The position numbers and the translations under genes were made by a program. The notes under the pieces are model-generated. The model had not been told where the DNA came from. It ran no database searches and saw only the letters and a list, made by a program, of their open reading frames with translations. A stretch of 40,266 nucleotides of DNA from positions 1 to 40,266 of IMG/VR virus record IMGVR_UViG_3300032225_000732. One strand, given 5' to 3'. The DNA comes from a virus. Its lineage: Duplodnaviria; Caudoviricetes. Below, in pieces: positions 1 to 20,463 of the stretch. Position 1 is the first letter of the stretch. The number at the start of each line of letters is the position of its first letter.

Positions 1-123
1 ACCCTTGCTGCCGTTGCAGGTGATACAAGCGCCACAGAGGTTCTCTGGTACGGTCAGGCCGCCCAGCACCTTGGGGATGATGTGGTCAAGCGTGGCGCTA
101 CGGGGGCCAAGCTGCTCGTTGCA
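1..123. repeat. Terminal direct repeat (copy 1), likely circular-assembly overlap
   Basis: 1-123 identical to 40144-40266; an ORF reads through the junction. Confidence 0.95.
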
Positions 124-234
124 GTAGGCGCAGCAGTAATCACTTCGTAATAACACTGCATCACGCCACCGCCGCTTCGCCTCCTTCCTCGGTATCAGCG
201 TCGTCCCATCGATCTGATGATCCACTGTTGGCAT
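1..234 (-). CDS. HNH endonuclease, 5' part (continues across the circular junction to stop at 40057-40059)
   Basis: Manual translation MPTVDHQIDG..RRWRDAVLLRSDYCCAYC..ATLDHIIPKVLGG..ENLCGACITCNGSKG; CxxC..DH..N..CxxCN HNH signature; 106 aa from ATG 234 (alternative GTG 225); absent from the ORF track. Confidence 0.88.
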   Translation of the reverse strand, partial: MPTVDHQIDGTTLIPRKEAKRRWRDAVLLRSDYCCAYCNEQLGPRSATLDHIIPKVLGGLTVPENLCGACITCNGSKG

Positions 235-391
235 CTGGCAGGGGGAACATTTCGATGTCAAGCGACAGCAGATCTTCTTCGTTCCCTATGAACTCAGAGA
301 TTCGTGCGTACACGTCCGCTGGCAACTCCTCCGGATCACTGTCCGAACGAATCACCACCTTGGCGGCGATCTCGAACAGGTATGGTTGCAC
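161..391 (-). CDS. Small acidic hypothetical protein
   Basis: 76-aa ORF preceded by TAGGCT -10 hexamer at 413-418. Confidence 0.6.
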   Translation of the reverse strand: MQPYLFEIAAKVVIRSDSDPEELPADVYARISEFIGNEEDLLSLDIEMFPLPDANSGSSDRWDDADTEEGGEAAVA

Positions 392-453
392 GGAGCAGTT
401 GCCGCTGCTACCAGCCTAGCTGGCGGCGGCAAACGTAAAGAAATGCAACAATA

Positions 454-506
454 TTGCCAGACGCGCCGTCTGCGGTGTATTCTGTTTCTACGGGAGGCAA
501 CTCCCG
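454..506 (+). promoter_or_regulatory. Sigma70-type early promoter with 5' hairpin
   Basis: TTGCCA(454-459)-18 nt-TATTCT(478-483), then CGGGAG-GCAA-CTCCCG (491-506). Confidence 0.6.
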
Positions 507-523
507 CCATTAAATCCAATCCA

Positions 524-3723: not shown

Positions 3724-3815
3724 CAGTCCTCGTCGTAGTTAGGTGGAGTTATCGCGATCAAGCTGTATCCCATGAGATATAGGCATATAACGATGCAAAA
3801 AACTAATCCAATCAT
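3723..3815 (-). CDS. 30-aa single-TM microprotein
   Basis: MIGLVFCIVICLYLMGYSLIAITPPNYDED; ATGA and TGATG overlaps at its two ends. Confidence 0.5.
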   Translation of the reverse strand: MIGLVFCIVICLYLMGYSLIAITPPNYDED

Positions 3816-4312
3816 GAGGATGGTATTTCAGGCCAGTTGATGTTCCAGGGAAAGCCTACCTGGCTAGTGACATCGCGAAGTTCTTGGCGATAGGCGGCCC
3901 AAGCTTTTGTATTAACGGGCGCATCAGCGAGTTGTGTCCAGTCACTTTCAGCTAAGCGCGCATTGCGATCAATACGAACTGATTCGCCTTGATTAGCGTC
4001 TTTGGCGCGACAATACTGCTCGTATTGTTCAGCTTCGGTGTGGACCACACCATCGGTATCGGTGTAGTCGGTAAAGGTTGGGCCAGCAACATACTTGGTA
4101 AACCATTGACCTTTGACCTTGACCGCACCATCCCGCTTGCTGTACTGGTACGGCGGGATGATAGTAGCTTGCGGACCTTCAAGCAGTTGGTCGTAACCAA
4201 AATCTGCAATGATTTCGGCAGTTAATATATCTGGAAACGATGTATCTGGATGCTCGAAACGGAGTTGGTCATCAGTGACGACAAGACCTGTGGTGCGATT
4301 CCGAAGTTCCAT
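3812..4312 (-). CDS. Tail fibre assembly chaperone-like protein
   Basis: C-terminal RNARLAESDWTQLAD..WAAYRQELRD..WPE motif; follows fibre genes. Confidence 0.75.
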   Translation of the reverse strand: MELRNRTTGLVVTDDQLRFEHPDTSFPDILTAEIIADFGYDQLLEGPQATIIPPYQYSKRDGAVKVKGQWFTKYVAGPTFTDYTDTDGVVHTEAEQYEQYCRAKDANQGESVRIDRNARLAESDWTQLADAPVNTKAWAAYRQELRDVTSQVGFPWNINWPEIPSS

Positions 4313-4316
4313 GTGC

Positions 4317-5324
4317 TTAGGCTATGGCAAGGTAGATAAAACTACCACCACTTGCGTTGATGGTAGTGAATGCAGTTGAAGTTATTTCAAAACCAAGAGA
4401 ATATGGATTAAGATAGTTGGTATTGGTGACTTCTGCAGCAGTTAAATCAGGTAATAGGTAAGGATCGTTTGAGCTACTAATTCCACGGGCTGTATCCCAT
4501 ATAAACCAGTTACTTGTGCTATCGGTACGTTTAATCATTATAAAACGAGCACCTGTTGTGAAACCGCAGTCAATTTGCATCCCTGTGCCATTGCCTGTGT
4601 ACGTTCCACAGTTAATTACATTAGCAGTTCCACTAGCTCCAAATCCTCCAGCATTGTGAGCAAAGATATAAGCAACGTAGGTACCACCAGAAGCATTCAC
4701 CGTTGTGGCTGTACCAAGACTAAATACACTGCTAGTTGGGGATGTACTATTCCATCGAGTAGCGCCAGTTGCTTTTGCTGCTGTTGTATTGAGTACTAGA
4801 TACTCCGTATTTGCAATGCCACGGTGATAAATTTGCCAGGCTGCTGCAGTGTCAGTACGTTTTACAAGAATGCAACCAGGCTGGCTGCCAAGGTCATGAG
4901 CAATAGTGCGGTTAGCACCTGTACCCGTATAAGTTACAATATCAAAAAATTTTGGTGTTTCTCGGAATGTCCAAGATATAAAAGTATTACCGTTAGCATT
5001 ATTAGTTTCGTTAGTACCCGTAACAGCAAAACCAGTAGAATTAAAAGAATTAACGCCAGAAGTGTCAGCTTGTTGACCTAATGGTTCACTCGAAACAAGC
5101 GTATAATTTGCGCCACGAACTGTATCGGTAAGAACATGTGATGCTGTTGCACTGCCACGATTTTTAATCCAGACTAATCCACCCTTACCACTTAAACTAA
5201 TTCCATTTGTAACAGTTTGAGTGCCACCATTACCTGTATAAAGAAAAGGACTGAATACATCTGTTGCATTTATAACAGCGCTACCAGCTGAACCCATTAA
5301 AAGTGTAAAAGTGTTTAAGTCCAT
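4317..5324 (-). CDS. Tail fibre-associated structural protein
   Basis: Three YTGNG/YTGTG..(W/L/M)(I/V)K-R repeats; Thr/Gly/Ser-rich; in tail module. Confidence 0.7.
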   Translation of the reverse strand: MDLNTFTLLMGSAGSAVINATDVFSPFLYTGNGGTQTVTNGISLSGKGGLVWIKNRGSATASHVLTDTVRGANYTLVSSEPLGQQADTSGVNSFNSTGFAVTGTNETNNANGNTFISWTFRETPKFFDIVTYTGTGANRTIAHDLGSQPGCILVKRTDTAAAWQIYHRGIANTEYLVLNTTAAKATGATRWNSTSPTSSVFSLGTATTVNASGGTYVAYIFAHNAGGFGASGTANVINCGTYTGNGTGMQIDCGFTTGARFIMIKRTDSTSNWFIWDTARGISSSNDPYLLPDLTAAEVTNTNYLNPYSLGFEITSTAFTTINASGGSFIYLAIA

Positions 5325-5329
5325 GTAGT

Positions 5330-6259
5330 TTAAGTAGTGTAGTTAATCAAGCTTGCGGCACGCCATCGAGTTCCACCATCGTCGGTAATAAACATGAATA
5401 AGTGCGTTTTACCCGTGGTTAGAGTTGGCGTTACGCTGCCTGGCCACTCTACACCGCTAAACCACGTGACGGTTCCACTGGTATGGGTCAGTTCCAAGGT
5501 AAAGGCATAGGCTCGACTCGATGGAACATTACTAACTGTGAAGGTGCTCGAACCTGAAATTGTTTTGGTGAAATAGTTGCCAGTGCTGCAATCAATGTCG
5601 AGCGCTGAAACTGCTGTTAAATTGCCGCGATAACTGCCATTTACATAGATAGCTCCTGTAAAAGTAGGACTTGGAAATGACGAAGCCCAGTTAAGGATTC
5701 CACTGCCGTCGGTCTGCAGTACCTGTCCGTTTGTGCCATCAGCACTTGGAAGTGTCAGCGTAAAATTGGTGGCGATGGAGCCAGGTGCCTGCAATGCAAT
5801 CCAATTGCTGCTGTCTAGGTCAGCAAAACGCAAATCGCTTTGACCGTTGAGCGTAAGATTGCTGGTGAGTGTGCCACCAGTCAATGCCAGGTAGGTGTTT
5901 GCTGCGGATGCCGTTGTCAGGTAACCACTAATGCTGGCACCAGAAGGGATGGTGACTGAGCCAGTAAATGTCGGGCTAGCTAGCGGCGCATAGGTGCTTG
6001 CAGCAGTGGCAGTGCTGAGTAGTCCAAGATTTACCGCTGTAACGTCACCAATTGTGATCCATGCCGAGTTTGCAGCATTGCGGATTTTTAACAGTGCTGG
6101 ACTAACTCCGGTATCAATCCACTTCTGGTACGCATACGTCGTAGTTGGGGCAGTCGAACCAGAATTTTGGCTGACAACTGCCGCAAGGATAGAATTTAGT
6201 TCTGTGCGAAAGCCGGAACCGCTTTGATTGGCAATCGAATAGTCTGTTGCTTGTGCCAT
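5330..6259 (-). CDS. Tail fibre protein
   Basis: DYSIANQSG..RTELNSIL N-terminus, APLASPTFTG, LTLPSADGTNGQVLQTDGSG fibre motifs. Confidence 0.75.
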   Translation of the reverse strand: MAQATDYSIANQSGSGFRTELNSILAAVVSQNSGSTAPTTTYAYQKWIDTGVSPALLKIRNAANSAWITIGDVTAVNLGLLSTATAASTYAPLASPTFTGSVTIPSGASISGYLTTASAANTYLALTGGTLTSNLTLNGQSDLRFADLDSSNWIALQAPGSIATNFTLTLPSADGTNGQVLQTDGSGILNWASSFPSPTFTGAIYVNGSYRGNLTAVSALDIDCSTGNYFTKTISGSSTFTVSNVPSSRAYAFTLELTHTSGTVTWFSGVEWPGSVTPTLTTGKTHLFMFITDDGGTRWRAASLINYTT

Positions 6260-9200
6260 TAGGTGATCTGTCTACCGTGGCCAACGGCTTGGTAGTCGAA
6301 TACTTTCGATATTGTACTGCCTCCTTGCTTAAAAGTTATGGTAAACCCGGTGCGGCTGATACTGGTCAATGCAAAATCCTCAGTATGGGCCATGTCCCTT
6401 GGCGTGATAGTGATGCTGGGAACCGTGTAAAAAGCAGTTGGGAAAGTGACTGTATAGCTACTGGTTCCACTTGTCAAACTGCTCTGGGTTTCGGTGCGAC
6501 GCTGCAGTTGAACTACAACACCAAGTTCCTGAACAGCAACATTTTCGTTTTGGTTGCTGGTGGTAACTGTAAGTCCGAACTGAAATCCTCTGCCACGGGT
6601 AGTGCTATTTACAAATGGCTGCCATGAACTCCAGGTAGGAGAACTGCTAGGATTGGTATTAGTGGTGCGAACGTACATACTACAATTGGCTTGTCCGAAA
6701 ACAGCACCATCAATATCAGTCCAATAATCTATATCTTCTACGCGACTATCCCAAAGATTACCAGGCTGGTAGGAACGTGTTTTCAAGATGTTGCGCAGAT
6801 CAATATCGTAAACAGCGCCAAGGTCTAGTGTTTCGTTGAATTGATAACTGCCTGAACTTATGGGACTTCCCGTCAGGATCAATCCATTTTCGCCAGAACT
6901 GTAGGCCATAGATGTAGAAGTACCGTTAAATGGTGGACTATTATCTTCCTCCCGATACTCTTGAGCAAGGTATGTATCCTGTGGAGATGGTAACCGTGCA
7001 ATTACACTTGCAGTACCAGCTGATTCATTACCGAGACTATCAACAGCGCGAATAAAATAAATACCTTCAAGTAATGGAACAATCTTGCGAGTGGCATTAC
7101 CTGGAATAGCAGGAACAATATCATTGGATTGCCCCCAGGTAGCTGTTCCATCAATTAAAGGACAATGGCGAATGCGGATCTGACCTCCAATGCGCACGTC
7201 AATATCCTGTGCTTGAGGCCAGTACAATTCTGCGCTCTTATCATCAATTGGCGCAATAAAGAGATTTGGGATTGTTGCTGGTGGTGCGGTTTTACCAATA
7301 GCATTAAACGTTAGCAATGCTGGCACTGATGTTTTTAGTGTTACCGAGACTGCTGATATTTCAAAGTTGTATCGCCCAATGCCTGTGTTAAGAATTTCAA
7401 AATCTGGCGATACAGATTCAGCGATGACCCAGTTATTGCTACCAATGCGGTACCTAATTTTATACGAAACGCTACGCAGATTTGATTGCCAACTAAGAAT
7501 AATTTTTGAGAGGACTTGTCCGCTATTTTCGTATAACAGTTCTTTAGCAGTTAAGTTTGTGGGCGTAAGAGGTGCTTCATTAAGATTGCTGATGTCCCGT
7601 GTTGTCAAAGGAATGTCGCGCTCGACGTAGTTATACTTGCTTGGATTATATGATAATGCTGTTACGACATAACTAGTTTCGTCTTGTTCGACAACAGATA
7701 GAACGCGAAAAAGCTGTGTTTCAATACTGCTATCTTGATAAATCCAGATACTACCCGATTGGGGAGTGTCACTGAAAGCACTGGTAACGGTAAATACTGC
7801 ATTATTACGGCTGCTGATTGCTCTACTTTCAATTGTTCCATTAGGTAAAACAACTGAAATAGTAGAACTAGACCCTGAAAAGCTTATTGATGATACATCA
7901 TCCGCCGTAATAGTGGTAGGTGTTGCGCGAATGATGCGGCCACCTGTACGCTCTCCAGAACGTACAGGATCAGCAACTTGAATAATTTGTCCTGGACGCA
8001 CTAAACTACCGGCATCAATTCCAGTAGTAAAGCTGCAGGTTTCGGATTCATTTTGTGCTGTGTATAATAACCATTCCCCTACTCGGCGGGCCTGTGATCG
8101 GCTAGTACAGGCAAAAGCGTCAAGTTCAGTTTTAATAATTCCATAATTACTAATTGCTTTTTGATCTTCTACAACTTCAAATGCAGCATCTCGTGTACCA
8201 TTAATATCAAAATATTTAACCACTGCAACTGTAGCACGAGTTTTTAATGCACTACCTGCGTAGGAAAAACCAGCTGGGCTTACATTACTGGTATTGAATA
8301 GGTAGGTTGGGTCTGCTGGGCGATCCTGGGAAATTGAAATAGAACCAGCACTCCAAAAAGGCATGGCACGAAAGATTGACGCCATCTGGTTAATGACGTT
8401 ATAAGCCTCATCTTGCGTTTGAATATTAACGTTGCAAGCAAAGCGCGGTTCTCCGCCACCTTTGCCATCGGAAACTATAGTGCCAGCATATTGACTGGCC
8501 GCAAAAAAACTCCACTTATCTAAAATGCCGGCGTCAATATGATTACCTGTTCCATAGCGTTTTGATGTCAGCAAATCCCATAAACACCATGCAGGATCCG
8601 TTGTCCACTGTGCTTGTGCAAAAGTACCATTCCATGTGCCTCCATATGAAATAGCTCCATTAACTGGGTTAACTGTAGCATTACTTGGAATCGCAACTTT
8701 TAAACCTCGAATGCGATATTTACGTGATGGAATATTTCCAAATTGTGTGGCGTCTACACGGATACCAGCCAGAACACTGTTTGGATACCGCAACCGGGAG
8801 TATTTAATTTCAGTGTACGAAGTCCAGACAAGCTCTCCATTTTTCAGTGTAGATGCAAAATCAGGTGTTAATCGAATCACTCGGACATCAACTGGCAAAC
8901 TTCCTGTTAATGCAAAACGTATTTCCCTTTGGTACAAATCAGTTGTTCGGCCATTAAAACTGTCAGTAATTACTCGTACAAAAGCACCACCGTTATACGA
9001 TACCTCTACAGCAAAATCAATTAAAACACCTACAATATCACCATTATCTAAAAACTCTTGCATCTGTGGAGTAGACAGAGTTAAGCGAATAGCGTTAATG
9101 CCAACACTGTTAATTGTGCGTGTAATTGGAGTATCAGGATTTATTATTACACCAACGCTATATTCGGATTGAATTGTTCCTGATAAAGGGATGGCTTCTT

Positions 9201-9471
9201 GGTTTTGGGTACCATAGCGTGTATAGACTTGGACATTTTGAAAGTTATAATCGCTAGCTTGCGCAATATACGGATTTGCACCTGCTCGCAGAATTGGCGT
9301 ATCGTCAAGAAAAATATCTTTGAGTTTGGCAATATTATATTCGTTGGAGTCTCGTGTAAAATCTTTTGCGCTTGGAAAACCTTCAATTTCACCTTCACAC
9401 AGTAGATCAATAATTTCAGAATATTGAACTGAATCAAGATCATCTGGAGCTCTAAATGGTGTATAGCTCAT
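6259..9471 (-). CDS. Central tail tip / host-specificity protein (lambda gpJ-like)
   Basis: IIDLLCEGEIEG, WTTDPAWCLWDLLT..RYG, EPRFACN, FnIII-like region; M-L-K-I-J synteny. Confidence 0.9.
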   Translation of the reverse strand: MSYTPFRAPDDLDSVQYSEIIDLLCEGEIEGFPSAKDFTRDSNEYNIAKLKDIFLDDTPILRAGANPYIAQASDYNFQNVQVYTRYGTQNQEAIPLSGTIQSEYSVGVIINPDTPITRTINSVGINAIRLTLSTPQMQEFLDNGDIVGVLIDFAVEVSYNGGAFVRVITDSFNGRTTDLYQREIRFALTGSLPVDVRVIRLTPDFASTLKNGELVWTSYTEIKYSRLRYPNSVLAGIRVDATQFGNIPSRKYRIRGLKVAIPSNATVNPVNGAISYGGTWNGTFAQAQWTTDPAWCLWDLLTSKRYGTGNHIDAGILDKWSFFAASQYAGTIVSDGKGGGEPRFACNVNIQTQDEAYNVINQMASIFRAMPFWSAGSISISQDRPADPTYLFNTSNVSPAGFSYAGSALKTRATVAVVKYFDINGTRDAAFEVVEDQKAISNYGIIKTELDAFACTSRSQARRVGEWLLYTAQNESETCSFTTGIDAGSLVRPGQIIQVADPVRSGERTGGRIIRATPTTITADDVSSISFSGSSSTISVVLPNGTIESRAISSRNNAVFTVTSAFSDTPQSGSIWIYQDSSIETQLFRVLSVVEQDETSYVVTALSYNPSKYNYVERDIPLTTRDISNLNEAPLTPTNLTAKELLYENSGQVLSKIILSWQSNLRSVSYKIRYRIGSNNWVIAESVSPDFEILNTGIGRYNFEISAVSVTLKTSVPALLTFNAIGKTAPPATIPNLFIAPIDDKSAELYWPQAQDIDVRIGGQIRIRHCPLIDGTATWGQSNDIVPAIPGNATRKIVPLLEGIYFIRAVDSLGNESAGTASVIARLPSPQDTYLAQEYREEDNSPPFNGTSTSMAYSSGENGLILTGSPISSGSYQFNETLDLGAVYDIDLRNILKTRSYQPGNLWDSRVEDIDYWTDIDGAVFGQANCSMYVRTTNTNPSSSPTWSSWQPFVNSTTRGRGFQFGLTVTTSNQNENVAVQELGVVVQLQRRTETQSSLTSGTSSYTVTFPTAFYTVPSITITPRDMAHTEDFALTSISRTGFTITFKQGGSTISKVFDYQAVGHGRQIT

Positions 9472-10163
9472 GCTGTTACCTTTTCAGTGCTAATACCACT
9501 AGATATCACAATACTACCCACTATGACCTCACCGTAGACAACGGGCACGGGTACACCCTGTCGGCTTACATTCTGAACTCCACTAAAACTATACGAACGG
9601 CGTGGATCTGTTTCACCATCCTGGCTTACTACATTGTTCCCTCCACCTCCACCTCCACCTCCACTTGAAAAACCTAGATTTAATTTTGGCGTGGGAGTTA
9701 TTAGTTGCGCAACGCCTCCAAGAACAAGTGATGCCCCAATTGCACCAATGGCTCCTGCAGCAACTCCACCAATAATTCCTGCACCGGCGCCGCTAGCAGC
9801 CAACCCTGCACCTAAACCCAGGAATCCCCCTACTGCTGGACCAAGCACAATTGCTGCAGCGATCAAGCCAATTCCAATTAGGATCTTACTAACTCCACCG
9901 CCAGCACCAGCAATCACTGGAATAATGCTGATCACCTCACGCTGTCCCGTGGGCAAGTGTAGTTCACCTGGGTCCTTGCCCAGTTGTAATGCCCGGCTAC
10001 CTACACGCACTTCGTAGTATTGGTCGGCCATGTGCTTTTCCACCTGGGGGAAATTAGCCAGTAGAAAACGCACTGCTTCGGCTGCGTTTGCAACCTGCGC
10101 TCGAAACACCTTCCGTTTCAAGAACCGAGCTAATGCGCCATAAACACGGATCGTGCGCAACAT
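9468..10163 (-). CDS. Tail assembly protein (lambda gpI-like)
   Basis: IRVYGALARF, IIPVIAGAGG, SYSFSG..QGVPVPVVYGE. Confidence 0.88.
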   Translation of the reverse strand: MLRTIRVYGALARFLKRKVFRAQVANAAEAVRFLLANFPQVEKHMADQYYEVRVGSRALQLGKDPGELHLPTGQREVISIIPVIAGAGGGVSKILIGIGLIAAAIVLGPAVGGFLGLGAGLAASGAGAGIIGGVAAGAIGAIGASLVLGGVAQLITPTPKLNLGFSSGGGGGGGGNNVVSQDGETDPRRSYSFSGVQNVSRQGVPVPVVYGEVIVGSIVISSGISTEKVTA

Positions 10164-10164
10164 T

Positions 10165-10872
10165 TCAGTCCATCCTGCTGCTATGGCGCAGAAAACGCCC
10201 GGTCGCCTTTAAATAATACCCCCCGTAGACGTCTCGGCTACTAAGACGTTCGGTTGCGTGGTGCAGGATTTGCTGATCACCGAGATACACAGCGCAGTGA
10301 TTTAACTTTGATGTCCCTAGAGCCATAAGGATTGCGTCGCCATACTCCAAGTCATCAAAACCGATCTCGATGAATCCGGTTGCCTTCCAGCTGGAATCGA
10401 ATAGAGGATTCTGCGTAAAATCCATCAATCTCGCTGGTCTTGGCCAGTCACGTAGTTCGAGCTGCCATTCCTCGGCGTACCAATCGCGAACGAGAGTCCA
10501 GCAGTCAGTAACGCCCCAAACCCATTCGCGGCCAATCAGTGGGGCTTTATAACCGCTTGGTTTGATCTCGTTCCAGATATCGACGTGGGGACTGTAGATG
10601 TGCCAAGGGACGCCAGTGCGCTCGCAAGCAACAAGGTCAGCTTGGCTGGCTTGCGGGCTAGTAACCGGATGGCTGTGGACTACGCCAACAATCTCTCCAG
10701 CATCTTCTGCTGCAGCCCAGTCCGTAGGATCAAGGATAAAAAAATCTTGATCTGTTGCCAAGTTTTTACAAGGCCAGTAGCGCTCTCGGCCTTTGATGAC
10801 CACCACCAAACCACATGCCTCGCGACTAAGGTCAGCCGATAGATGCTCAACAGCCTTTATACGCCAGTTCAT
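10165..10872 (-). CDS. Tail tip assembly protein (lambda gpK-like; JAB + NlpC/P60)
   Basis: EACG..VHSHP..SQAD (JAB); GVTDCWTLVRD..NHCAVYLG..ILHH (NlpC/P60). Confidence 0.9.
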   Translation of the reverse strand: MNWRIKAVEHLSADLSREACGLVVVIKGRERYWPCKNLATDQDFFILDPTDWAAAEDAGEIVGVVHSHPVTSPQASQADLVACERTGVPWHIYSPHVDIWNEIKPSGYKAPLIGREWVWGVTDCWTLVRDWYAEEWQLELRDWPRPARLMDFTQNPLFDSSWKATGFIEIGFDDLEYGDAILMALGTSKLNHCAVYLGDQQILHHATERLSSRDVYGGYYLKATGRFLRHSSRMD

Positions 10873-13748
10873 ACGTACTGCTGGCCAACACCAGGGAAAG
10901 ATCCGAATGGTAAATCTACATTAGTACCAAACCGTGCTTCACAACTGCTCAACCGTTTGCCACATACATCGAAAAAATCACTTGGGGCATTTGTCGGGAT
11001 CTTGGGCTCTACATTGCTGTAGTATCCGGCATTCCAAATTGCAATATTATTAACGTCGTATTGCACAAGGTTTCCATCGTCTTGCAGGCTAAGAATTCCA
11101 GCTGAACTATTAACGCCATTGATGCGATACTCGCGGCCAACAGTGCTGATTGTCCCCAATGGGTGGGTGCGGAATGGGTTACCTGCTGATGTAGTTAGTG
11201 AAACATTAACAAATTCGTCTAAATACCATTTTCCAGTGCTTGTAACATAGATTTCGCTGTTAAATGTCCATGACCTAGCCTGGCCGCTGTAGTGACCCGC
11301 TGGCAATGTGTAGTTTGCGGTAGCGTTAAATGTTAATCTAATCGTGCGTGTGCCCAGCGTAAAAGTGCGCGATACTGTTCTAGTTTGTCCAGCTTGCGTG
11401 ACAGCACTACCAAAAATTTCATACAGGAAAGCGTGTTGTCTGTTATCCCCTGTTTGCGCTGGGACCTGTGGCTCTGCAGCACTTGAGTAACCACTCGTAA
11501 ATGTTGTAGAGCCTTGAGTGGTAACGGTAAGTGTTCCAGAATCGCTGATTGCAAGTGTTGAAACAGGAAACACAGCTGTGCCAGGTTCCGCTGACCTTCC
11601 AGTTGCTGTGCTCCACAATCGTGTTTCAGCGTATGTTATAACTGATGGCTCTACGCTACTTGCCGTATTAGTCCGCCATAGCGCTGTATTATCAGTAGCA
11701 TATAATACAAGATCGCCAGTATTTTCTAATTTCCAGCGGTACCCACGCCACTGGGAATAAAGCTGCCTATTGCTCCACCAAACCGCATTATTACTGGTGT
11801 TGTATAAAACCAAATTGCCATCAGCTTGAAAATAAGCATAATGAGCATCTGTGTATGCAGTTCCGCTACTCCATACAGGTGTATTGTAATTTTGCTCTGC
11901 TGTGCCTCCTGTACCTTTTCTATAAAGAACCAAATTGCCATCAGTTTGCATTGTTAGGCGGTACCAGCCATTGGCTGAATACAGTGTTTGCTCTTTATAG
12001 AGCTTGCTGCTTTCAGTGTTTGTTGCGAGTATTTGTCCGGTACCAGTTGGGAAATTGGGTGCGGGTGATGTTACTGTTGTTGAGGCATTATTTGTGCCGT
12101 TGATTACAAGATTGCCATCATTCAACAGAGAAAGTTGTTTGCCTGTCCATTGTGGATAGGATCCTTTATTGCTTTGCCATACTGGAGCATTGGCAGCAGT
12201 GTATAGCACCAGGTTTCCATCACTCTGGAATTGTGCGTAGGTAGCATTGAGGCCACCAGTGCCAGAATTCCAGATAGCTATGTTGTAATTTTGATCGGCC
12301 GGACCGCTGAAAATTGTGCCTTTGCTATAAAGCACTAAATTTCCATCGGACTGAAGAGTCAGTCGATACCAGCCGTTGGGTGAGTAGAGATTCTGACCAA
12401 TTGTTAATCTGCTGCTACTTGAGTCTCCAGCAGTAAGAAAACCTGGGCTGGTTGGAAAATTGGTCGTTGGTGTAAAACTTGTGGGTTGCAAATACGAGCC
12501 AGCATTCCAAATAGCCTGGCCATCTGAATACCTGTAAAGTACCAGATTACCATCCTGCTGAAAAATGGCCTTGCAGGCTTCAGCTGTATCAGTAAACCAT
12601 ATCGGTTTGTTTGCTTTGTTGTAAACAACGAGTTTTCCGTCCCGTTGCATCAACAACCGGTACCATCCATTTGCAGACGTTAGGTATTCTCCTGGCCATA
12701 ACTCACGGGTACGAGGAGCCGCATCCGACTGTACTGAACTTGTGCTCGCTTCAAAATTCTGCGCTGCAACAAGCTGCAAATTGTCCGCATCGCCTTGTGG
12801 ATAAACCTCAGGAGTAAGATTGACAAATGTAAGATTTGAAATTGACGCTACGTTTGGCGTATTTGAATTCCACGTGGCTTTATTTGTGCCATCATATAAA
12901 ACAAGGTTGCCATCTGTCTGATACTTAAATGTTGATACCCCCGCATTACCAGTTAGCGTACTCCAGACAGCTTTGCTGGCTTTGTTATAAATGACAAAAT
13001 TGCCATCCTCCTGCATTAAAGCGATATACCAGCGGTTCGGTGAGGTCAAAAATTGATTGGGGCCGATTATGGTGCCAGCTGTGATGTTGCTTGTTCCAAC
13101 TGCGTAGTTGGGAGCGGTTACAAAGTTTGCGGCTACGTCGTTCTCATCAAAGGCGGCAGTACCCGTGTATCCACATTCAGGGCCACGATATTTCCACTGG
13201 CAGATGCTGCTGATACATTGACGACCTGGTAGCCTGACATTAACCAAATCAATAGCTGTGGCTAACTCAAATTCAATGTAGTCACGATTTTCAGCTACTT
13301 TACGATCTACTGCATAGATTTCCCGTGGTGCTTCGGCTGTCTCATCTGGATTACCAAACGGGTTTTTATTCTCTGGAAAATTAACAGCATCTAGGTACCT
13401 TGCACAGGTGCGAATCCTGATGACCTTGGCACCCATTAAGTCATTGCCTGGTGTTATACCATTGACATTAAGAAGTACCGATGTGACAAAGCTAAATAGA
13501 TTGGCAACTCGTAACATGGGACGTGGCAATTGAGTACCGTTGTACTCAAAACCAGAAACTTCAATCGGAAAACGTTGATACCTATTTCCTGCCCAAACAA
13601 TATCGCCATTGGCTTGGCGCATATTAGTACCAGAGTGAAACCGGTAAATCTCGTTGCTGCCATGTAACTCAATTCTTGTGTGCAGCTCAAAAAGTTCAAT
13701 AATGGCTGAAGGTGCCAGTGACTGAAGTTCTGAAATAATAGACGTCAT
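10869..13748 (-). CDS. Minor tail protein gpL-like with four inserted bulb-type (GNA) lectin domains
   Basis: gpL N-terminus (IIELFEL..PIEVSGFE..PRP..CQWKYRGPECGY) and C-terminus (DVCGKRLSSC..RFG..LPFGSFPG); 12 QxDxNxVxY-like motifs between them. Confidence 0.88.
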   Translation of the reverse strand: MTSIISELQSLAPSAIIELFELHTRIELHGSNEIYRFHSGTNMRQANGDIVWAGNRYQRFPIEVSGFEYNGTQLPRPMLRVANLFSFVTSVLLNVNGITPGNDLMGAKVIRIRTCARYLDAVNFPENKNPFGNPDETAEAPREIYAVDRKVAENRDYIEFELATAIDLVNVRLPGRQCISSICQWKYRGPECGYTGTAAFDENDVAANFVTAPNYAVGTSNITAGTIIGPNQFLTSPNRWYIALMQEDGNFVIYNKASKAVWSTLTGNAGVSTFKYQTDGNLVLYDGTNKATWNSNTPNVASISNLTFVNLTPEVYPQGDADNLQLVAAQNFEASTSSVQSDAAPRTRELWPGEYLTSANGWYRLLMQRDGKLVVYNKANKPIWFTDTAEACKAIFQQDGNLVLYRYSDGQAIWNAGSYLQPTSFTPTTNFPTSPGFLTAGDSSSSRLTIGQNLYSPNGWYRLTLQSDGNLVLYSKGTIFSGPADQNYNIAIWNSGTGGLNATYAQFQSDGNLVLYTAANAPVWQSNKGSYPQWTGKQLSLLNDGNLVINGTNNASTTVTSPAPNFPTGTGQILATNTESSKLYKEQTLYSANGWYRLTMQTDGNLVLYRKGTGGTAEQNYNTPVWSSGTAYTDAHYAYFQADGNLVLYNTSNNAVWWSNRQLYSQWRGYRWKLENTGDLVLYATDNTALWRTNTASSVEPSVITYAETRLWSTATGRSAEPGTAVFPVSTLAISDSGTLTVTTQGSTTFTSGYSSAAEPQVPAQTGDNRQHAFLYEIFGSAVTQAGQTRTVSRTFTLGTRTIRLTFNATANYTLPAGHYSGQARSWTFNSEIYVTSTGKWYLDEFVNVSLTTSAGNPFRTHPLGTISTVGREYRINGVNSSAGILSLQDDGNLVQYDVNNIAIWNAGYYSNVEPKIPTNAPSDFFDVCGKRLSSCEARFGTNVDLPFGSFPGVGQQYV

Positions 13749-14086
13749 AGATCAACTACCTCACGAAATGTTGCCGTAATTGACCATGCTCCAGGTGCAA
13801 CTGCAGATAAATCCCAATCCTGACAAATAAATGAACCAACTACACCGTTAGGCGTAAGCCAGTTGAAATTTTCTGACCCACCACGGGCATCAAGAAATCC
13901 GGTAATTTGATCTTTGACTACAGTGGTCACATTATCAAATGAAACACTCCATGATTTTAAGTCCGTGTTTAATCCGTAACGGATCCGTTGTTCGTATCCA
14001 TCGCCAAACTGCATACCTCGCACAGTTGGCTTACTGGTTTCCTGTGCTCCGTAGCTTGGAACCCATATAAAAGTTGTGCCAGCCAT
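13745..14086 (-). CDS. Distal tail protein (lambda gpM-like)
   Basis: FGDGYEQRI..GLN, FLDARGGSENFNW, ITATFREV. Confidence 0.9.
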   Translation of the reverse strand: MAGTTFIWVPSYGAQETSKPTVRGMQFGDGYEQRIRYGLNTDLKSWSVSFDNVTTVVKDQITGFLDARGGSENFNWLTPNGVVGSFICQDWDLSAVAPGAWSITATFREVVDL

Positions 14087-16284
14087 CAGCTTAACAATCC
14101 ACCTGGGCGTTTTTGCTTAATCAATTCTGCCTGAACAGCAGTGGAGATTGCAAGTCCCAATTGCCTGCTTTGTGCTTGATCACCTTGCACGCTAGAGCCG
14201 CTGGCATCTACGTTAACAGTAACACTGGTGCTGCCGCCGCCAAGGGCGTTGTTTGGCACGATGCTGCCGCCATGCTTAGGCGTGAACAGCTCGGGGCCAC
14301 GTTCGCCGACCATGTAAGACGATCCAGCGCTGACTGGGCCGCCTATGGCGCGTTTGCCAAGGCCACCAGTTAAGAAACTGAAAAAGCCAACTCCGTCATT
14401 GCCTGCCAGGCTGGTCAGAAGTTTCATGATGCCACTTGTAATTAACTGTCTGGCAATATCTTTTAGCACTTGAGCTGCTGATTCACCAAGACTTTTGGTC
14501 CCTTCAACTGCGCCAGTTATTGCATTTATCACTCCTCCTGTAATTGTTGTACCAATTTGATTGTAGATAGCATACAGTTGATCTGCCTGTTTTAGTTGCT
14601 CTTGTAATTTTTCGTTTTTGGCTACAATTGCTTCAACCTCTTTCTGTTGCAACGTGGGATTGTCCCGCATGATTTGCTGAATAAGCAAGCGTTTTTGATA
14701 TTCTTGTTCCGTGCCAGCAAGTTTAGCTTTCAGCAATTCCCCTTCTTGAATGTGCGGGCGTATTGCGGCTTCAGCCTGCTTGGCTATTTGTACTTGATTC
14801 AAGATCAATTGTTGCTGCGTGTCCCTCTGCGCAATTACGACATCTTGCAGCAATGTTTGCTTTTTGGACTGCAACTCTTGTGGTTTTAGCTTTTCGTATT
14901 CAAGTTTTGAAATTTCCGCACTAATTTGTGCCAGTTTTTTCTGACCTTCTAAACGGATGGCAGTCTGCTTGTCGTTTACTAAGTTAGCTTCAAATATTCT
15001 GTTGTCTATGCCGTAAATTTGTTGTTTCAAATCGCGTTGAATCGCAAGGTCACCAAGTGAATTTTTGAGGCGCAATGCCTCTTCTGCTGCTTTTTCGGCT
15101 GCTCTTTCAGCATCGGATTTGCCTTTCTTTTTCTTGCCGCCGCCAGTTTCGCCAAGCAATGCAGGCACGGCAGATGGCTTAAATACATTTGACTGAGCTT
15201 TGTTAAGTTGCTGCTGTGCTGCTAAATTTTGCTGGATTTTCTGTTGGATAACTCCCTGTAGCTGAACGGCGCGGCTAGCATTTGGATCCTCTGCGCCAAT
15301 CCGTTGTAGGACTGTCTGATAATTTGCCAAATACTGTAAATTTTGCTGGATGCCAGCTTTGTTCCTCTGACTGCTGACTTGACCGATACCTTTGGCAATT
15401 CGGTCTACACCTTCAGAGGTTGCTCCAAGATTGATTGCTCCAGTAGCACCAGCAAGATTTCGTGCAAATCCACCGCCACGGCCTGCTGCTAATGCGGCAT
15501 TGATCGCATCAACTACTTGAATAGCTTGGGCAAAAATTGCTTTTAATGCAGGTGTCAGTACAACACCAATTGTTCTAGCAAGCTGCTCTACTCCATCGGT
15601 TAATGTGCTGAATTTTCCTTGAAGTGTGTCACTCTGGGCAATTGCACCATTTGCATATTTGCCACCAGCATCTGTCAATCGCTTAACTGCAACTTCAACA
15701 GCTTCTGCGCTAATGCGACCTTTGCTGAGCGCTTTCTGGAATTCCTCACCAGTCAGACCATACATCTTGCGCAATTCATCCTGTAGCGCAACACCACGCT
15801 CTTGGAATTGCAATAATTCTTCGCCTTGCAAACGGCCTTTTGCCTGCACTTGGCCATAAGCCGTGGCTAGACCTTGAAGCTCTGCACCAGTGGCACCAGC
15901 TACATCAGCAAGCCGTCTAGTGGTTTCAACAACTTTGTCGCCTTCAACTCCAAAAGCGTTAAGACGCTTGGCTGTGTCGATTAGCTCTGTACTGGTAAAT
16001 GGCGTGACTGCGCCAAGCTGCTGGAGCTCTTGAATGATCGATTTGGCCTGCTGGACGCTACCAGTCAGAACCTGAAGACTTCTTGTCTGTGTCTCAAGCT
16101 CTGCTGTTTTAGCAAAAACAAACTTTAATGCTGAAACAACAGTAAACGCACCAACTAAACCAGTTACAGCATTTTTAACTCCATCAACTGCGCTTGCAGT
16201 TGCCTTTGATGCTGCACTGACCTGATTCAGGTTTCGTACAGCACCCTGACTATTGACTTGAATATCGACTGAAGCTACTGCCAC
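14086..16284 (-). CDS. Tape measure protein
   Basis: TPFTSTEL, AYGQVQAKGRLQGEELLQFQERG domain; helical middle; C-terminal RAIGGPV..VGERGPELF. Confidence 0.92.
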   Translation of the reverse strand: MAVASVDIQVNSQGAVRNLNQVSAASKATASAVDGVKNAVTGLVGAFTVVSALKFVFAKTAELETQTRSLQVLTGSVQQAKSIIQELQQLGAVTPFTSTELIDTAKRLNAFGVEGDKVVETTRRLADVAGATGAELQGLATAYGQVQAKGRLQGEELLQFQERGVALQDELRKMYGLTGEEFQKALSKGRISAEAVEVAVKRLTDAGGKYANGAIAQSDTLQGKFSTLTDGVEQLARTIGVVLTPALKAIFAQAIQVVDAINAALAAGRGGGFARNLAGATGAINLGATSEGVDRIAKGIGQVSSQRNKAGIQQNLQYLANYQTVLQRIGAEDPNASRAVQLQGVIQQKIQQNLAAQQQLNKAQSNVFKPSAVPALLGETGGGKKKKGKSDAERAAEKAAEEALRLKNSLGDLAIQRDLKQQIYGIDNRIFEANLVNDKQTAIRLEGQKKLAQISAEISKLEYEKLKPQELQSKKQTLLQDVVIAQRDTQQQLILNQVQIAKQAEAAIRPHIQEGELLKAKLAGTEQEYQKRLLIQQIMRDNPTLQQKEVEAIVAKNEKLQEQLKQADQLYAIYNQIGTTITGGVINAITGAVEGTKSLGESAAQVLKDIARQLITSGIMKLLTSLAGNDGVGFFSFLTGGLGKRAIGGPVSAGSSYMVGERGPELFTPKHGGSIVPNNALGGGSTSVTVNVDASGSSVQGDQAQSRQLGLAISTAVQAELIKQKRPGGLLS

Positions 16285-16493: not shown

Positions 16494-16843
16494 TTTTTTG
16501 CTTCTTCCAGCGACTCAGGCGCACCAAGGCCAAAGAGAAACAACTCCAGTTCGTTCAGTACCGACTCGGGCAGTTCGCGTTGCAGCTTGGCAGCATCGGC
16601 GGATGCAAATGCTTTGGTGCCGTTTTCTAGCTCAGCCATGTGGCACAGCATCTGGGTGCTGATGTCCAAGGCTTCCTCGGATCCAGCCAGGCCAGATGCA
16701 CGCTTTCGATCAGCGCGGGTAATTGGTTTGAAGTACAACGACAGCACTACGGTGCCATCTTCCTTCTTGATGTTGAATTGACGCCGCTGGTTTAGGTCAA
16801 AAGCCCCGGTGAGTAGATCAACGGGGCGTGGTGTGGCAGGCAT
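16487..16843 (-). CDS. Tail assembly chaperone (gpG-like)
   Basis: Between tail tube and TMP; ends EEAKND on a slippery heptamer. Confidence 0.8.
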   Translation of the reverse strand: MPATPRPVDLLTGAFDLNQRRQFNIKKEDGTVVLSLYFKPITRADRKRASGLAGSEEALDISTQMLCHMAELENGTKAFASADAAKLQRELPESVLNELELFLFGLGAPESLEEAKND

Positions 16844-17265
16844 TAGATCGAGGTAGTAATGGCACCGTTCATGGTGAAGTTAACCGTCACCATTTCCAGT
16901 TCGCCAACCGTAGCACCGTAATCAGCAGATGTGATCACAATGGCACCGGTAATTTTCTTGCCGCCGGTTTCATCAAGGTACAACTCAACGTTGGCGTTGC
17001 CTTCGTCAGTTGCTACGTTGACATCCCTGAGCAGGTCAAGTTTGTCACCAGCGCTAGGTGCGTCATACATGATTTCCATGCTGCCGCTGCCTGCGATCAG
17101 ACCGCCGATGTTGGCTTTGTAGGTTGCGCCTTGGGCAGTCGTCTCCATGACATCCTTTTCCACGGTCATAGACCAGGAACGCACAGCAGCAATTTCGCTG
17201 AGTGCCGCACCAGAAGCATCCTTATCAAAAAAGATGGTGCCTTGTTCGCCGCGATAGAAAGCCAT
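16843..17265 (-). CDS. Major tail tube protein, paralogue 2
   Basis: RSWSMTVEKDVMETTAQG..IGGLIAGSGS..ITSADY; position in tail module. Confidence 0.8.
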   Translation of the reverse strand: MAFYRGEQGTIFFDKDASGAALSEIAAVRSWSMTVEKDVMETTAQGATYKANIGGLIAGSGSMEIMYDAPSAGDKLDLLRDVNVATDEGNANVELYLDETGGKKITGAIVITSADYGATVGELEMVTVNFTMNGAITTSI

Positions 17266-17267
17266 GA

Positions 17268-17687
17268 TCAGATCGTCGAGGTGGTGATGGTGCCAGTAGT
17301 CACGAAGTTACAGGTGATAACCTCCAACTCGCCAACAGTGGCGCTGTAGTCGGCAGAAGTGATCAAGCCAGCAAAGCTGATCTTCTTGGTGCCGGTGGTG
17401 TCAAGGAACAGCTCGAAGGTTGCCACACCTTGATCGGTTGCGGTGTTAGCAGCCTTGATAAACGTGCTGGTTTCGTCGGCGCTGCTGGCTGTGTACATCA
17501 GCTCAACGCTGCCAGAACCGGCGATCAGTCCACCGATGTTGCTCTTGTAGGTAGCACCCAGGGCGGTGGTTTCCAACACGTCTTTTTCAATGGTCATCGA
17601 CCACGAACGGGTGGATGCAATGGTGGTGTTAGCAGAACCGGCATCGTCAAATTTGACTGAACCTTGTTCGCCGCGATAAAAGGCCAT
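17268..17687 (-). CDS. Major tail tube protein, paralogue 1
   Basis: RSWSMTIEKDVLETTALG..IGGLIAGSGS..ITSADY. Confidence 0.8.
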   Translation of the reverse strand: MAFYRGEQGSVKFDDAGSANTTIASTRSWSMTIEKDVLETTALGATYKSNIGGLIAGSGSVELMYTASSADETSTFIKAANTATDQGVATFELFLDTTGTKKISFAGLITSADYSATVGELEVITCNFVTTGTITTSTI

Positions 17688-18923: not shown

Positions 18924-19150
18924 TACGCAAAGACTCGGTACGGATTGGCGGGTTCTACAAGATAATCATCCCACCCATCAGGCAACACGCCAGCAAAGTT
19001 GACGTGGAAGCCAACTGTGTCAGGAATTCCACCAATTACGTCAATCGCGTGGCCGTGGGTGTAGGCAGTCAGGGTGTCGTCAATCAAAAACCCAGCCTCA
19101 GTGGCAGCAGTGGTCCAGGTGGATTCGTCGGGGAAGCGTAGGAAGTTCAT
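18923..19150 (-). CDS. Hypothetical protein coupled to the fibre gene
   Basis: Translational overlaps on both sides; GFHVNF..PANPYRVFA. Confidence 0.65.
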   Translation of the reverse strand: MNFLRFPDESTWTTAATEAGFLIDDTLTAYTHGHAIDVIGGIPDTVGFHVNFAGVLPDGWDDYLVEPANPYRVFA

Positions 19151-20463
19151 GGTTGGGTGATCTGCTGAAGGGTGGTGTCGGTGAGACGGGTAGGCCAGTA
19201 GATGAGACGCTTGATGATGCCATTTTGATAGTTATTGGCTTGATCATTGCCAATCAAAAGCTGAGTAACAGTAGGCAGCGTGCCACTGGTGTCAGTAACA
19301 GCACTGCCGTTATCACTTGCCATTGCAAAATTATTAACTGCATATCCAATGGCAGCCCTAGTTTCTGTATTTATTGAAATAGTTCCGCCATCAAGATCAG
19401 CTTGCGTAGCGCCACCATCAACTACAATAAATTTAGGATCTGTTGTACTGCTGTAAAGATTCATCCGCTCATTGGCGGTGCCATCGTTGAATGTAGCGAC
19501 GCTTCTAGTGCCACTTGCTGGTGTCCTGTATTGGGCAAATAGCGAACCTTCGTTGGCATTAAACCAATTATTAAAGTTCGACCCGGTAATGCTGGCCACA
19601 TCAGCAGCACGGGTTGCAGTGGTGCCAGTTGTTGGGATATAGGACGTCATAAACGCACCAGCCTCAAACTGTGCGCCCCATAAGTACAAGCCAGATGACC
19701 CGCCTGTGTACGTTGTCAAAACACCAGATGTCATCTGGAAAGAAATTGAAGAAGAAGCTGATGAAGTCGTACAGGTTGCAGTACAACTGATCCGCACCCA
19801 ACCGTTTGCATAAAACTGAAGCGATGTAGCAACAGGACTATTGGTCGGAGTAATTACACCCGTAGTTAAATCAAATCCAGCGGCCACTTGGGTGGTGAAT
19901 TGAGCAGATGGAAAGAAAAGTCGAATGTTACGCGTTGGGGACACGCTGGTGTTTTGCTTGACCCAAACACTTAACGTGTAACTAGTTCCAGCAGTAACGC
20001 TAAAATTGCTTTGCAGAACGTGGGTGTTGGTACTGGTGTCTTCAGTCAGCAGATCAGCAGTGGTTGTTCCATCTGGTGCTGTCGTTTGATTGGTGGTCAG
20101 CGTAGCTCTGGTAGTAGTCCAGCCAGTACTGAAATCAGCGCTAGCGGTCACCAGATTGGTGCGGGCTTCTTCCACCAGCAAACCAAGACTTTCACCCGTT
20201 GTTGGGTTGTGGTCGAAGCGGGCCTCATTAGTGGTTGCTGTTTTAACTATTCCATCTGATCCTGTGTATGTGGCAGAGCTGGCGCGGGTGAAAGTGACAG
20301 GACTGCCGCCGCCATAAGCATCACCTAACGTCTTGTTGTCCGCAAACCGTAGGTCAAGACTTGGCAGCGCACGCGCTGTCTTCCATAGCGCATTGCGTGC
20401 CCAGCTGCCAGCTAATGCGCCACCGGGGACAACGCTAGTCCGTGATGCGCCTAACGCCCGCAT
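19147..20463 (-). CDS. Head/neck fibre-like structural protein with carbohydrate-binding-like domains
   Basis: TFTRASSATY..ARFDH..GLLVEEARTNL, WGAQFEAG..TSYIPT..ATRAAD motifs; Thr-rich beta composition. Confidence 0.7.
   Translation of the reverse strand: MRALGASRTSVVPGGALAGSWARNALWKTARALPSLDLRFADNKTLGDAYGGGSPVTFTRASSATYTGSDGIVKTATTNEARFDHNPTTGESLGLLVEEARTNLVTASADFSTGWTTTRATLTTNQTTAPDGTTTADLLTEDTSTNTHVLQSNFSVTAGTSYTLSVWVKQNTSVSPTRNIRLFFPSAQFTTQVAAGFDLTTGVITPTNSPVATSLQFYANGWVRISCTATCTTSSASSSISFQMTSGVLTTYTGGSSGLYLWGAQFEAGAFMTSYIPTTGTTATRAADVASITGSNFNNWFNANEGSLFAQYRTPASGTRSVATFNDGTANERMNLYSSTTDPKFIVVDGGATQADLDGGTISINTETRAAIGYAVNNFAMASDNGSAVTDTSGTLPTVTQLLIGNDQANNYQNGIIKRLIYWPTRLTDTTLQQITQP

Follow-up and report, generated by a model that had tools for sequence, protein, structure and literature searches.

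Bulb-type lectin domains probably nested within one another in gpL, a tail-tip protein of a putative picocyanobacterial siphovirus

In this work we analysed the tail-tip protein gpL encoded in a stretch of viral DNA of 40,266 nucleotides (IMG/VR record IMGVR_UViG_3300032225_000732, positions 1 to 40,266; Duplodnaviria, Caudoviricetes), which we call the window. The window is a siphovirus genome with its head, neck and tail genes on the minus strand. Between the second and third of the four gpL cysteines (Cys), this protein carries an insert of about 710 residues with four bulb-type lectin domains (D1 to D4) and one further domain, X. Read from the sequence, the domain order is gpL[D1[X[D2[D3[D4]]]]], with the pieces balanced like brackets. 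We are highly confident that this nested architecture is real. We also think it probable, taken as one joint claim, that the five domains nested between the Cys pairs form a single out-and-back arm that serves as an accessory sugar-binding adhesin.

Layout and predicted fold of the insert

The original prediction on this DNA had located the four Cys, four similar openers, four closers and eight intact plus four degenerate sugar-binding motifs, and we could confirm all of these positions. The 12 motif sites comprise eight exact copies of Q.D.N.V.Y (residues 246, 277, 397, 466, 508, 601, 641 and 889) and four degenerate ones (368, 542, 675 and 735). Openers lie at 212, 329, 428 and 563, and closers at 698, 719, 757 and 912. 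The exact motif never arose in 5000 shuffles of the insert. The opener and the closer, [WF]-x7-9-EP, are found four times each, against a shuffle mean of 0.16, and four were reached in 0 of 5000 shuffles, a control that is lenient in so far as both patterns were written after viewing the sequence.

An independent profile of 128 positions was derived from 11 contiguous lectin modules that follow the Cys pairs of other gpL proteins. Its positions 10-128 match D4 whole (residues 569-701). The other domains are matched in pieces, namely two-thirds of D1 (profile 10-93, residues 218-299), two-thirds of D2 (22-90, residues 351-417) and D3 without its end (16-117, residues 443-557), and the return of D1 is found at residues 875-915 (88-128). 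The earlier claims that only D4 is contiguous and that the third motifs of D1 and D2 are displaced are thus reproduced by this profile, though weakly for D2. A split non-lectin segment, originally put at about 300-325 plus 765-880, corresponds to X, with its first strand at 300-324 and its body at 763-880. The idea of four lectins inside each other has to be modified: the nesting itself agrees with profile, models and homologues, but the lectins do not sit directly in one another throughout, as X lies between D1 and D2.

The protein that hosts these domains has the hallmarks of gpL. Its N-terminal hub domain I (HDI) is recognised by PF05100 with 168 bits against a cut-off of 25, phmmer matches the protein to lambda gpL (8iyk_L) with E 2e-24, and a VIA match of model residues 6..165 to the same chain has Z 9.1 with 134 residues aligned, the root-mean-square deviation (rmsd) being 4.5. 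The four Cys stand in two pairs, 183/192 and 929/936, which is the gpL pattern, and the gene sits between homologues of gpM and gpK-gpI-gpJ, as in lambda. The pairs are 737 residues apart, against about 31 in Synechococcus phage S-H1, whose gpL has 233 amino acids (aa) with Cys pairs starting at 174 and 205. The lectin family PF01453 scores 96.9 bits against a cut-off of 32.4.

We folded this gpL with AlphaFold2 from 20 sequences, which gave a mean predicted local distance difference test score (pLDDT) of 70.5 and a predicted template modelling score (pTM) of 0.48. Most blocks of the insert have pLDDT 70-94, with lower values in loops and linkers and poor ones in the gpL parts. Gastrodianin (1xd6) aligns to model residues 219..911 with Z 17.8, 109 of 110 residues aligned and rmsd 1.4 Å, and since this alignment spans 219 to 911, D1 closes across the insert in the model; a further fold search gave a similar result. 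For D2, the parts 327-424 and 722-762 modelled as separate chains gave a complex score of 0.82, the best of three controls being 0.02; at least 99% of contacts are common to the runs, partner pLDDT is 85 or more, and residues 327-329 and 759-762 are both listed in the interface. The mark for this score is reached by 116 of 157 solved complexes and by 2 of 215 mismatched pairs, and the pass may stem from likeness to solved lectins, in that any two-thirds lectin might accept the returning piece. We assign this piece to D2 because D1 is already closed by residues 881-918. Both D1 and D2 are therefore predicted to fold from two distant segments.

The support for D3 is indirect. LlpA and pyocin L1 align to model residues 434..716, and the alignments end on residue 251 of LlpA and 226 of pyocin L1; the LlpA N-domain is completed by residues 245-253 (PMC3585409). 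The alignment of the pyocin L1 N-domain also ends on 226 in the one-lectin model described below, and W712 is kept in 16 of 16 four-lectin proteins. Taken together, the sequence and the structural alignment to tandem lectins indirectly support closure of D3 by a late last strand within residues 702-722. The folds of D3 and D4 are likewise predicted from the profile and the tandem-lectin alignments of the models. The original expectation that D1 to D3 fold from discontinuous segments consequently holds in the model for D1 and in the complex for D2, and has sequence and indirect alignment behind it for D3.

As a one-lectin homologue we folded P0123 with 116 sequences (pLDDT 81.5), chosen since MAFFT spread the one-lectin forms over the repeats in a deep alignment with P0001 first. 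Its lectin is also split, and Marasmius lectin (4tkc) aligns over the range 215..467 with Z 18.0, 117 of 118 residues aligned and rmsd 2.1. The D1 alignment, the D2 complex and the conservation of tryptophan (Trp) in the predicted models all agree with a beta-prism II fold with three core Trp. Pfam simply gives four B_lectin stretches, as ordinary tandem or circularly permuted lectins from contiguous sequence would. We give this explanation next to no credence, as segments that lie 600 and 300 residues from each other combine into one fold, and as the shorter homologues run on without a break at exactly these joints. At the level of models, the results for D1, D2 and P0123 contradict both contiguous domains and a fold other than beta-prism II, either of which would have spoken against the original prediction.

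Candidate strand pairs in the model are 209-211/916-918, 300-312/869-880, 326-328/761-763, 424-427/723-726 and 557-562/702-707, so that the outgoing and returning chains are predicted to run side by side at the junctions. From this we infer the strand pairing and the shape of an arm. Another pairing can be imagined, in which the three gpL subunits swap their returning segments, or D3 and D4 trade strands with each other, so that a compact cluster would result in place of an arm. Bulb lectins such as LlpA and snowdrop-lectin dimers do commonly exchange their last strand (PMC3585409, PMC3916391), and our models are monomers with the pTM given above. However, the stretch between D3 and D4 has no Trp-bearing strand, D4 is complete alone, and D1 is closed in cis in the monomer model. 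The sequence therefore does not show the LlpA-type exchange of terminal strands, and we regard a swapped cluster as improbable.

Table 1. Coordinates in the window of the gpL gene, its parts in chain order and the surrounding tail genes
Feature	Position	Strand	Residues (aa)	Remarks
gpL gene, whole nested insert included	10869..13748	-	959 in total	PF05100 168 bits, 2 stretches; PF01453 96.9 bits, 4 stretches; phrog_18
gpL N part, hub domain I and first Cys pair C183/C192 (13173-13202)	13125..13748	-	1-208	match to lambda 8iyk_L
D1 outgoing part, opener and subdomains a, b (W262, W293)	12852..13124	-	209-299
Domain X, first strand and loop	12777..12851	-	300-324	strand E300-312; directly before X body in one-lectin homologues
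D2 outgoing part, subdomains a, b (W384, W414)	12483..12776	-	325-422
D3 outgoing part, three motifs, without final Trp strand (W493, W524)	12093..12482	-	423-552	profile 16-117 of 128
Outgoing linker strand, D3 to D4	12069..12092	-	553-560	strand E557-562, low pLDDT
D4, sole contiguous lectin, innermost in sequence, predicted arm tip	11646..12068	-	561-701	profile 10-128; missing from three-lectin forms
Return linker and putative D3 last strand (W712, closer)	11583..11645	-	702-722	indirect: W712 16/16, LlpA/pyocin L1 alignment
D2 returning part, degenerate third subdomain and closer	11463..11582	-	723-762	complex score 0.82 vs best control 0.02
Domain X body, one helix and long beta strands	11109..11462	-	763-880	pLDDT 77-93
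D1 returning part, third subdomain (motif 889, W905) and closer	10995..11108	-	881-918
gpL C part, second Cys pair C929/C936 (10941-10964)	10872..10994	-	919-959	invariant in alignment; aligns to C-terminus of F-pyocin hub 25vf_7
Tape measure, gpM, gpL, gpK, gpI, gpJ genes, lambda order	6259..16284	-		Pfam/PHROG matches; order common to related loci

Homologues and the natural series

Our homologue search returned 2566 proteins among 7994 candidates, and the 120 listed include at least 15 other full-length four-lectin proteins of 937-969 aa, 54-94% identical and with the same layout. The layout is not an assembly artefact, because these 15 proteins share it and the DNA of the lectin repeats is mutually only about 60-76% alike. 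For a wider view we collected 232 proteins with both Cys pairs from three word-based searches, the best 150 of one HMMER scan and a cluster look-up. Among them, at least 33 have four lectin heads between the Cys pairs (17 being near-copies from the cluster look-up), at least five have three (three near-copies), at least 116 have one, and at least 11 have a lectin after the Cys pairs. No lectin was scored in 67, of which eight are of one-lectin size with a head below the score cut. The three-lectin form is also known as a DNA locus (L095). The survey of zero to four nested units proposed originally therefore found zero, one, three and four lectins, the two-lectin form being absent from the matches listed.

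In the three-lectin forms D3 is contiguous and is followed by the last third of D2 with a clearer motif (independent E-value 1.6e-5), and in the one-lectin forms D1 is split by X only. The shorter forms thus read as contiguous exactly where an inner layer is absent. Among the matches listed, there was no gpL whose D1 is contiguous and which lacks X between the Cys pairs. In a tree of the lectins (69 columns) D3 and D4 group with support 96/96 and D2 stands alone with 95/96, with weak deeper forks; D3 and D4 would accordingly be a duplicated pair. A tree of the gpL core from 57 chosen rows joins the three- and four-lectin forms with support 100/99. The order of gains would be from one to three to four lectins.

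The core Trp, three per domain in out-and-back order, are conserved in 15-16 of 16 proteins, except at position 750 (W in 11, F in 5). In each domain, the middle one of the sugar motifs is intact in 15-16 of the 16 four-lectin proteins, as it is in 99 of 116 one-lectin proteins, and a four-lectin protein has between five and nine intact motifs. Such conservation would agree with selection acting on some of the sugar sites of each domain. The one-lectin proteins retain all four Cys in 116 of 116 cases, and these might plausibly converge in one site.

Domain X is found together with one, three or four lectins, and again in gpJ-like proteins that lack them. It has no Pfam match under E 0.1 and no PHROG family common to more than one of 26 members. 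Its best matches among PDB sequences have merely E 0.012 and 0.21, fold searches with whole-protein models gave no match confined to X, and the Atlas feature scores (0.76 and 0.79) and template modelling scores (up to 0.54) all lie below threshold. Three proteins of about 1400 aa, P0135, P0147 and P0149, which are probably gpJ-like (P0149 has a weak PF13550 match), contain two X bodies each. Nesting of X within X in these three was a by-eye impression that we dropped, as the profile of the X first strand failed to locate the strand even in P0001.

A putative sugar-binding arm

The host is likely a picocyanobacterium, because terminase (72-79% identity) and major capsid protein (61-75%) are closest to those of Synechococcus phage S-H1, cyanophage KBS-S-2A and Prochlorococcus phages P-HS2, MED4-184 and MED4-117. 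Beyond these five phages the next terminase and capsid matches are at most 45% identical. To our knowledge, the receptors and adhesins that siphoviruses use on picocyanobacteria are poorly characterised.

We propose that gpL keeps a lambda-type hub with its four Cys, and that D1, X, D2, D3 and D4 fold as a single arm. In lambda, gpL is a trimer whose Cys domain lies on the outside of the tail tip, at its surface (PMC10721106), and by analogy the arm would project sideways; three arms per virion would present 12 lectin domains and 24 intact motifs. Sites that are weak singly could together give avid and reversible capture on lipopolysaccharide (LPS) or another surface polysaccharide, which would precede engagement by gpJ or the side fibre. 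In pyocin L1 the same motif serves for D-rhamnose in LPS, and the affinity for the free sugar is only millimolar (PMC3916391). For the first of these reasons mannose should not be assumed as the ligand here, and for the second, valency would matter. Sugar binding by the arm is likely, as judged by motif conservation, and the four Cys might bind a 4Fe-4S cluster.

The arm may have lengthened by a new copy put into a loop of the last domain. Growth would take place there because a chain inserted in an internal loop has to end at its point of departure. Copies in tandem would crowd together close to the anchor; a new copy in a distal loop, by contrast, would extend the reach and leave two-stranded linkers.

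Several observations weigh against the reading of the insert as a grown, sugar-binding arm. In the alignment of four-lectin proteins the sites D2c and D4c are intact in 0 of 16, D3a in 6 and D4a in 5, so that some domains may be spacers, and six of the 116 one-lectin proteins have no intact motif. No two-lectin form is found among the matches listed for the 232 proteins with both Cys pairs, nor was one seen among those listed for the loci from three contig scans. The gpL-core tree leaves gain against loss of D4 undecided and does not place the three- and four-lectin forms inside the one-lectin group. As to the models, the pTM of 0.48 means that the relative placing of the domains and the shape of the arm are not fixed, and pLDDT is below 50 at 164-209 and 919-959, the Cys region. 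The P0123 model covers 198 of 232 residues of lambda gpL (model 10..508, Z 16.1) with an rmsd of 6.3 Å and a low-confidence Cys region. The return of D2 is matched by the independent profile only weakly (97-128 on residues 730-760, 0.8 bits). Finally, the phage encodes a side fibre with its chaperone, and the arm need not carry host specificity.

The dead sites raise the question whether most of the lectins are a structural stalk in a nested arm of which only the tip, or X, binds the host. Two sites are dead in all 16 proteins and a further two in most homologues, LlpA-type proteins have lost the sites of one of their two domains (PMC3585409), and X accompanies the lectin in the forms with one, three and four lectins and recurs in gpJ-like proteins. 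We nevertheless think a mere stalk unlikely, as the middle motif, including Gln and Tyr, is intact in all four domains of 15-16 of 16 proteins, and not in D4 alone. A different role could be the binding of non-host polysaccharide such as gels, particles or mucilage, which would keep the virion near hosts with no part in adsorption. The separate side fibre and conserved gpJ would agree with this, as would the plain gpL of the cultured relatives S-H1 and KBS-S-2A (233 and 235 aa). However, the position at the tail tip, near the cell wall during adsorption (PMC13243795), fits host contact, and modules inserted in Dit bind the same host as the main receptor-binding protein (PMC7291167). We consider such a role improbable. 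The same conserved gpJ, side-fibre module and plain gpL of cultured relatives are why we read the sugar-binding arm as an accessory adhesin. Across the one- and four-lectin loci with a complete gpJ, this protein is 54-66% identical over its full length (40% in L074), whereas the arm is variable. In 50,697 records of cultured phages the insert had a single match, over 26% of its length.

Each ingredient of this arrangement has a precedent. Lambda gpL (PF05100; 8iyk chain L) shares the hub domain, the four Cys and the gene order M-L-K-I-J, but has 232 residues without insert and its Cys at 173, 182, 205 and 212 (PMC10721106), where the protein here has about 710 extra residues between the second and third. 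Monomeric lectins of the Galanthus nivalis agglutinin/monocot mannose-binding lectin (GNA/MMBL) type, such as gastrodianin and Marasmius lectin, share the fold (Z 17-18, rmsd 1.4-2.1 Å), the QxDxNxVxY motif and three core Trp. Unlike in these, three of our four domains are interrupted and lectin serves as both host and insert. In the tandem MMBL proteins LlpA, pyocin L1 (which binds LPS polysaccharide) and SCAfet, the chain's last strand closes off the first domain, as proposed for D3, and the interdomain linker is two-stranded. Their exchange is reciprocal and involves two domains only, whereas here it is apparently one-way, with D1 and D2 lending a whole subdomain.

Evolved Dit and Tal proteins of siphophages also carry carbohydrate-binding modules in structural tail-tip proteins, and those in Dit are accessory adhesins for the same host, of lower affinity than the main receptor-binding protein (PMC7291167). 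They have one or two modules of other folds and Gram-positive hosts, and the part of that account available to us describes no nesting. Our case resembles them in placing a module in a tail-tip protein, but the host protein is gpL and neither Dit nor a gp27-like Tal; a part of the T5 hub protein is the counterpart of gpL (PMC10721106). As a phenomenon, recursive insertion has been documented, and it is uncommon (PMC13114784; PMC2662426). In Si3 of the cyanobacterial RNA polymerase beta-prime subunit, largely homologous small domains are inserted recursively at six levels (PMC13114784), with hybrid-motif domains in an enzyme that is neither virion protein nor lectin. The view that nesting is an unusual way to build an appendage thus stands as regards rarity and has to allow for this precedent. 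Variability of the gpL C region has been noted (PMC13243795). In the literature searched, mostly without subscription papers, we found no self-nested bulb lectins in gpL and, on bulb or mannose-binding lectins of phage or cyanophage tails and on nested insertion, nothing about this type of protein. Taken singly, nested insertion is known, and so are sugar-binding modules in proteins of the tail tip; new here, as far as that literature goes, are self-nested bulb lectins in gpL with a natural series.

The arm is a defined and expressible adhesin candidate, and its natural versions with zero, one, three and four lectins would allow reach and avidity to be compared. The series is also a clean example from nature of how a protein nested at six levels, with one fold as both host and insert, may fold and evolve. 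It suggests that a structural protein without a free end can grow a long multivalent appendage by nesting, and two unrelated domain families in gpL appear to do so. Annotation misses the nested arm because the sources name these proteins minor tail protein L. As a broader idea, which we hold with rather more doubt than belief, gpL of aquatic lambda-like phages might be a general display platform whose loop-anchored arms grow telescope-like by self-insertion. Arm length and valency would then tune the reach through the picocyanobacterial polysaccharide coat and help to set host range independently of gpJ, and X would be a so far unrecognised, insertion-tolerant tail-tip fold of gpL and gpJ-like proteins.

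Other gpL inserts and neighbouring genes

Other gpL proteins carry different inserts. A small unit that resembles a beta-barrel (weak PF12195/PF16190 matches below cut-off) is found between the Cys pairs, once each in P0229 and P0269. By split matches to a profile of the single unit, it is two deep in P0227, where positions 1-16 (weak) and 15-73 of one unit enclose a second, whole one, and three deep in P0235, which adds a third layer. A contiguous bulb lectin with the same W..EP closer follows the second Cys pair in eleven proteins (P0102, P0111, P0159, P0161, P0162, P0165, P0167-P0169, P0214 and P0221); judged by its sequence, it is the same module at a second site. The N part of gpL has a third insertion hot spot near 122-130 in P0102, P0228, P0229, P0296, P0340 and locus L082 (about 5983-6975), with inserts of up to about 440 aa, one of them with a LamG domain. 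In P0193, P0200, P0202, P0203 and P0260 non-lectin repeats follow the second Cys pair and short strands are gathered at the end, an arrangement that looks like nesting to the eye. In P0260 there is, besides, a match to a SUEL-type lectin below cut-off.

All neighbouring genes mentioned here lie on the minus strand. gpM of this phage is a plain 113-aa protein. Downstream of gpJ, a side-fibre module (3812-6259) consists of a 309-aa fibre-like protein, a DUF7483 protein and a tail fibre assembly chaperone. The segment 16311-16843 is likely a pair of tail assembly chaperones: a 118-aa open reading frame ends just past an A-AAA-AAC run and is followed by an overlapping open frame of 67 codons, which we take to resemble the G/GT programmed frameshift. 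Two adjacent tail-tube genes (16843-17265 and 17268-17687) encode proteins that are 64% identical over 130 aa, and S-H1 matches both. A 438-aa protein encoded between head and neck genes (19147-20463; weak PF02018 match, E 0.007; phrog_5939, 'tail protein') is possibly a second adhesin or a head decoration. At 1672-2896 a dCTP deaminase gene lies beside a gene for a C39-peptidase-like endolysin.

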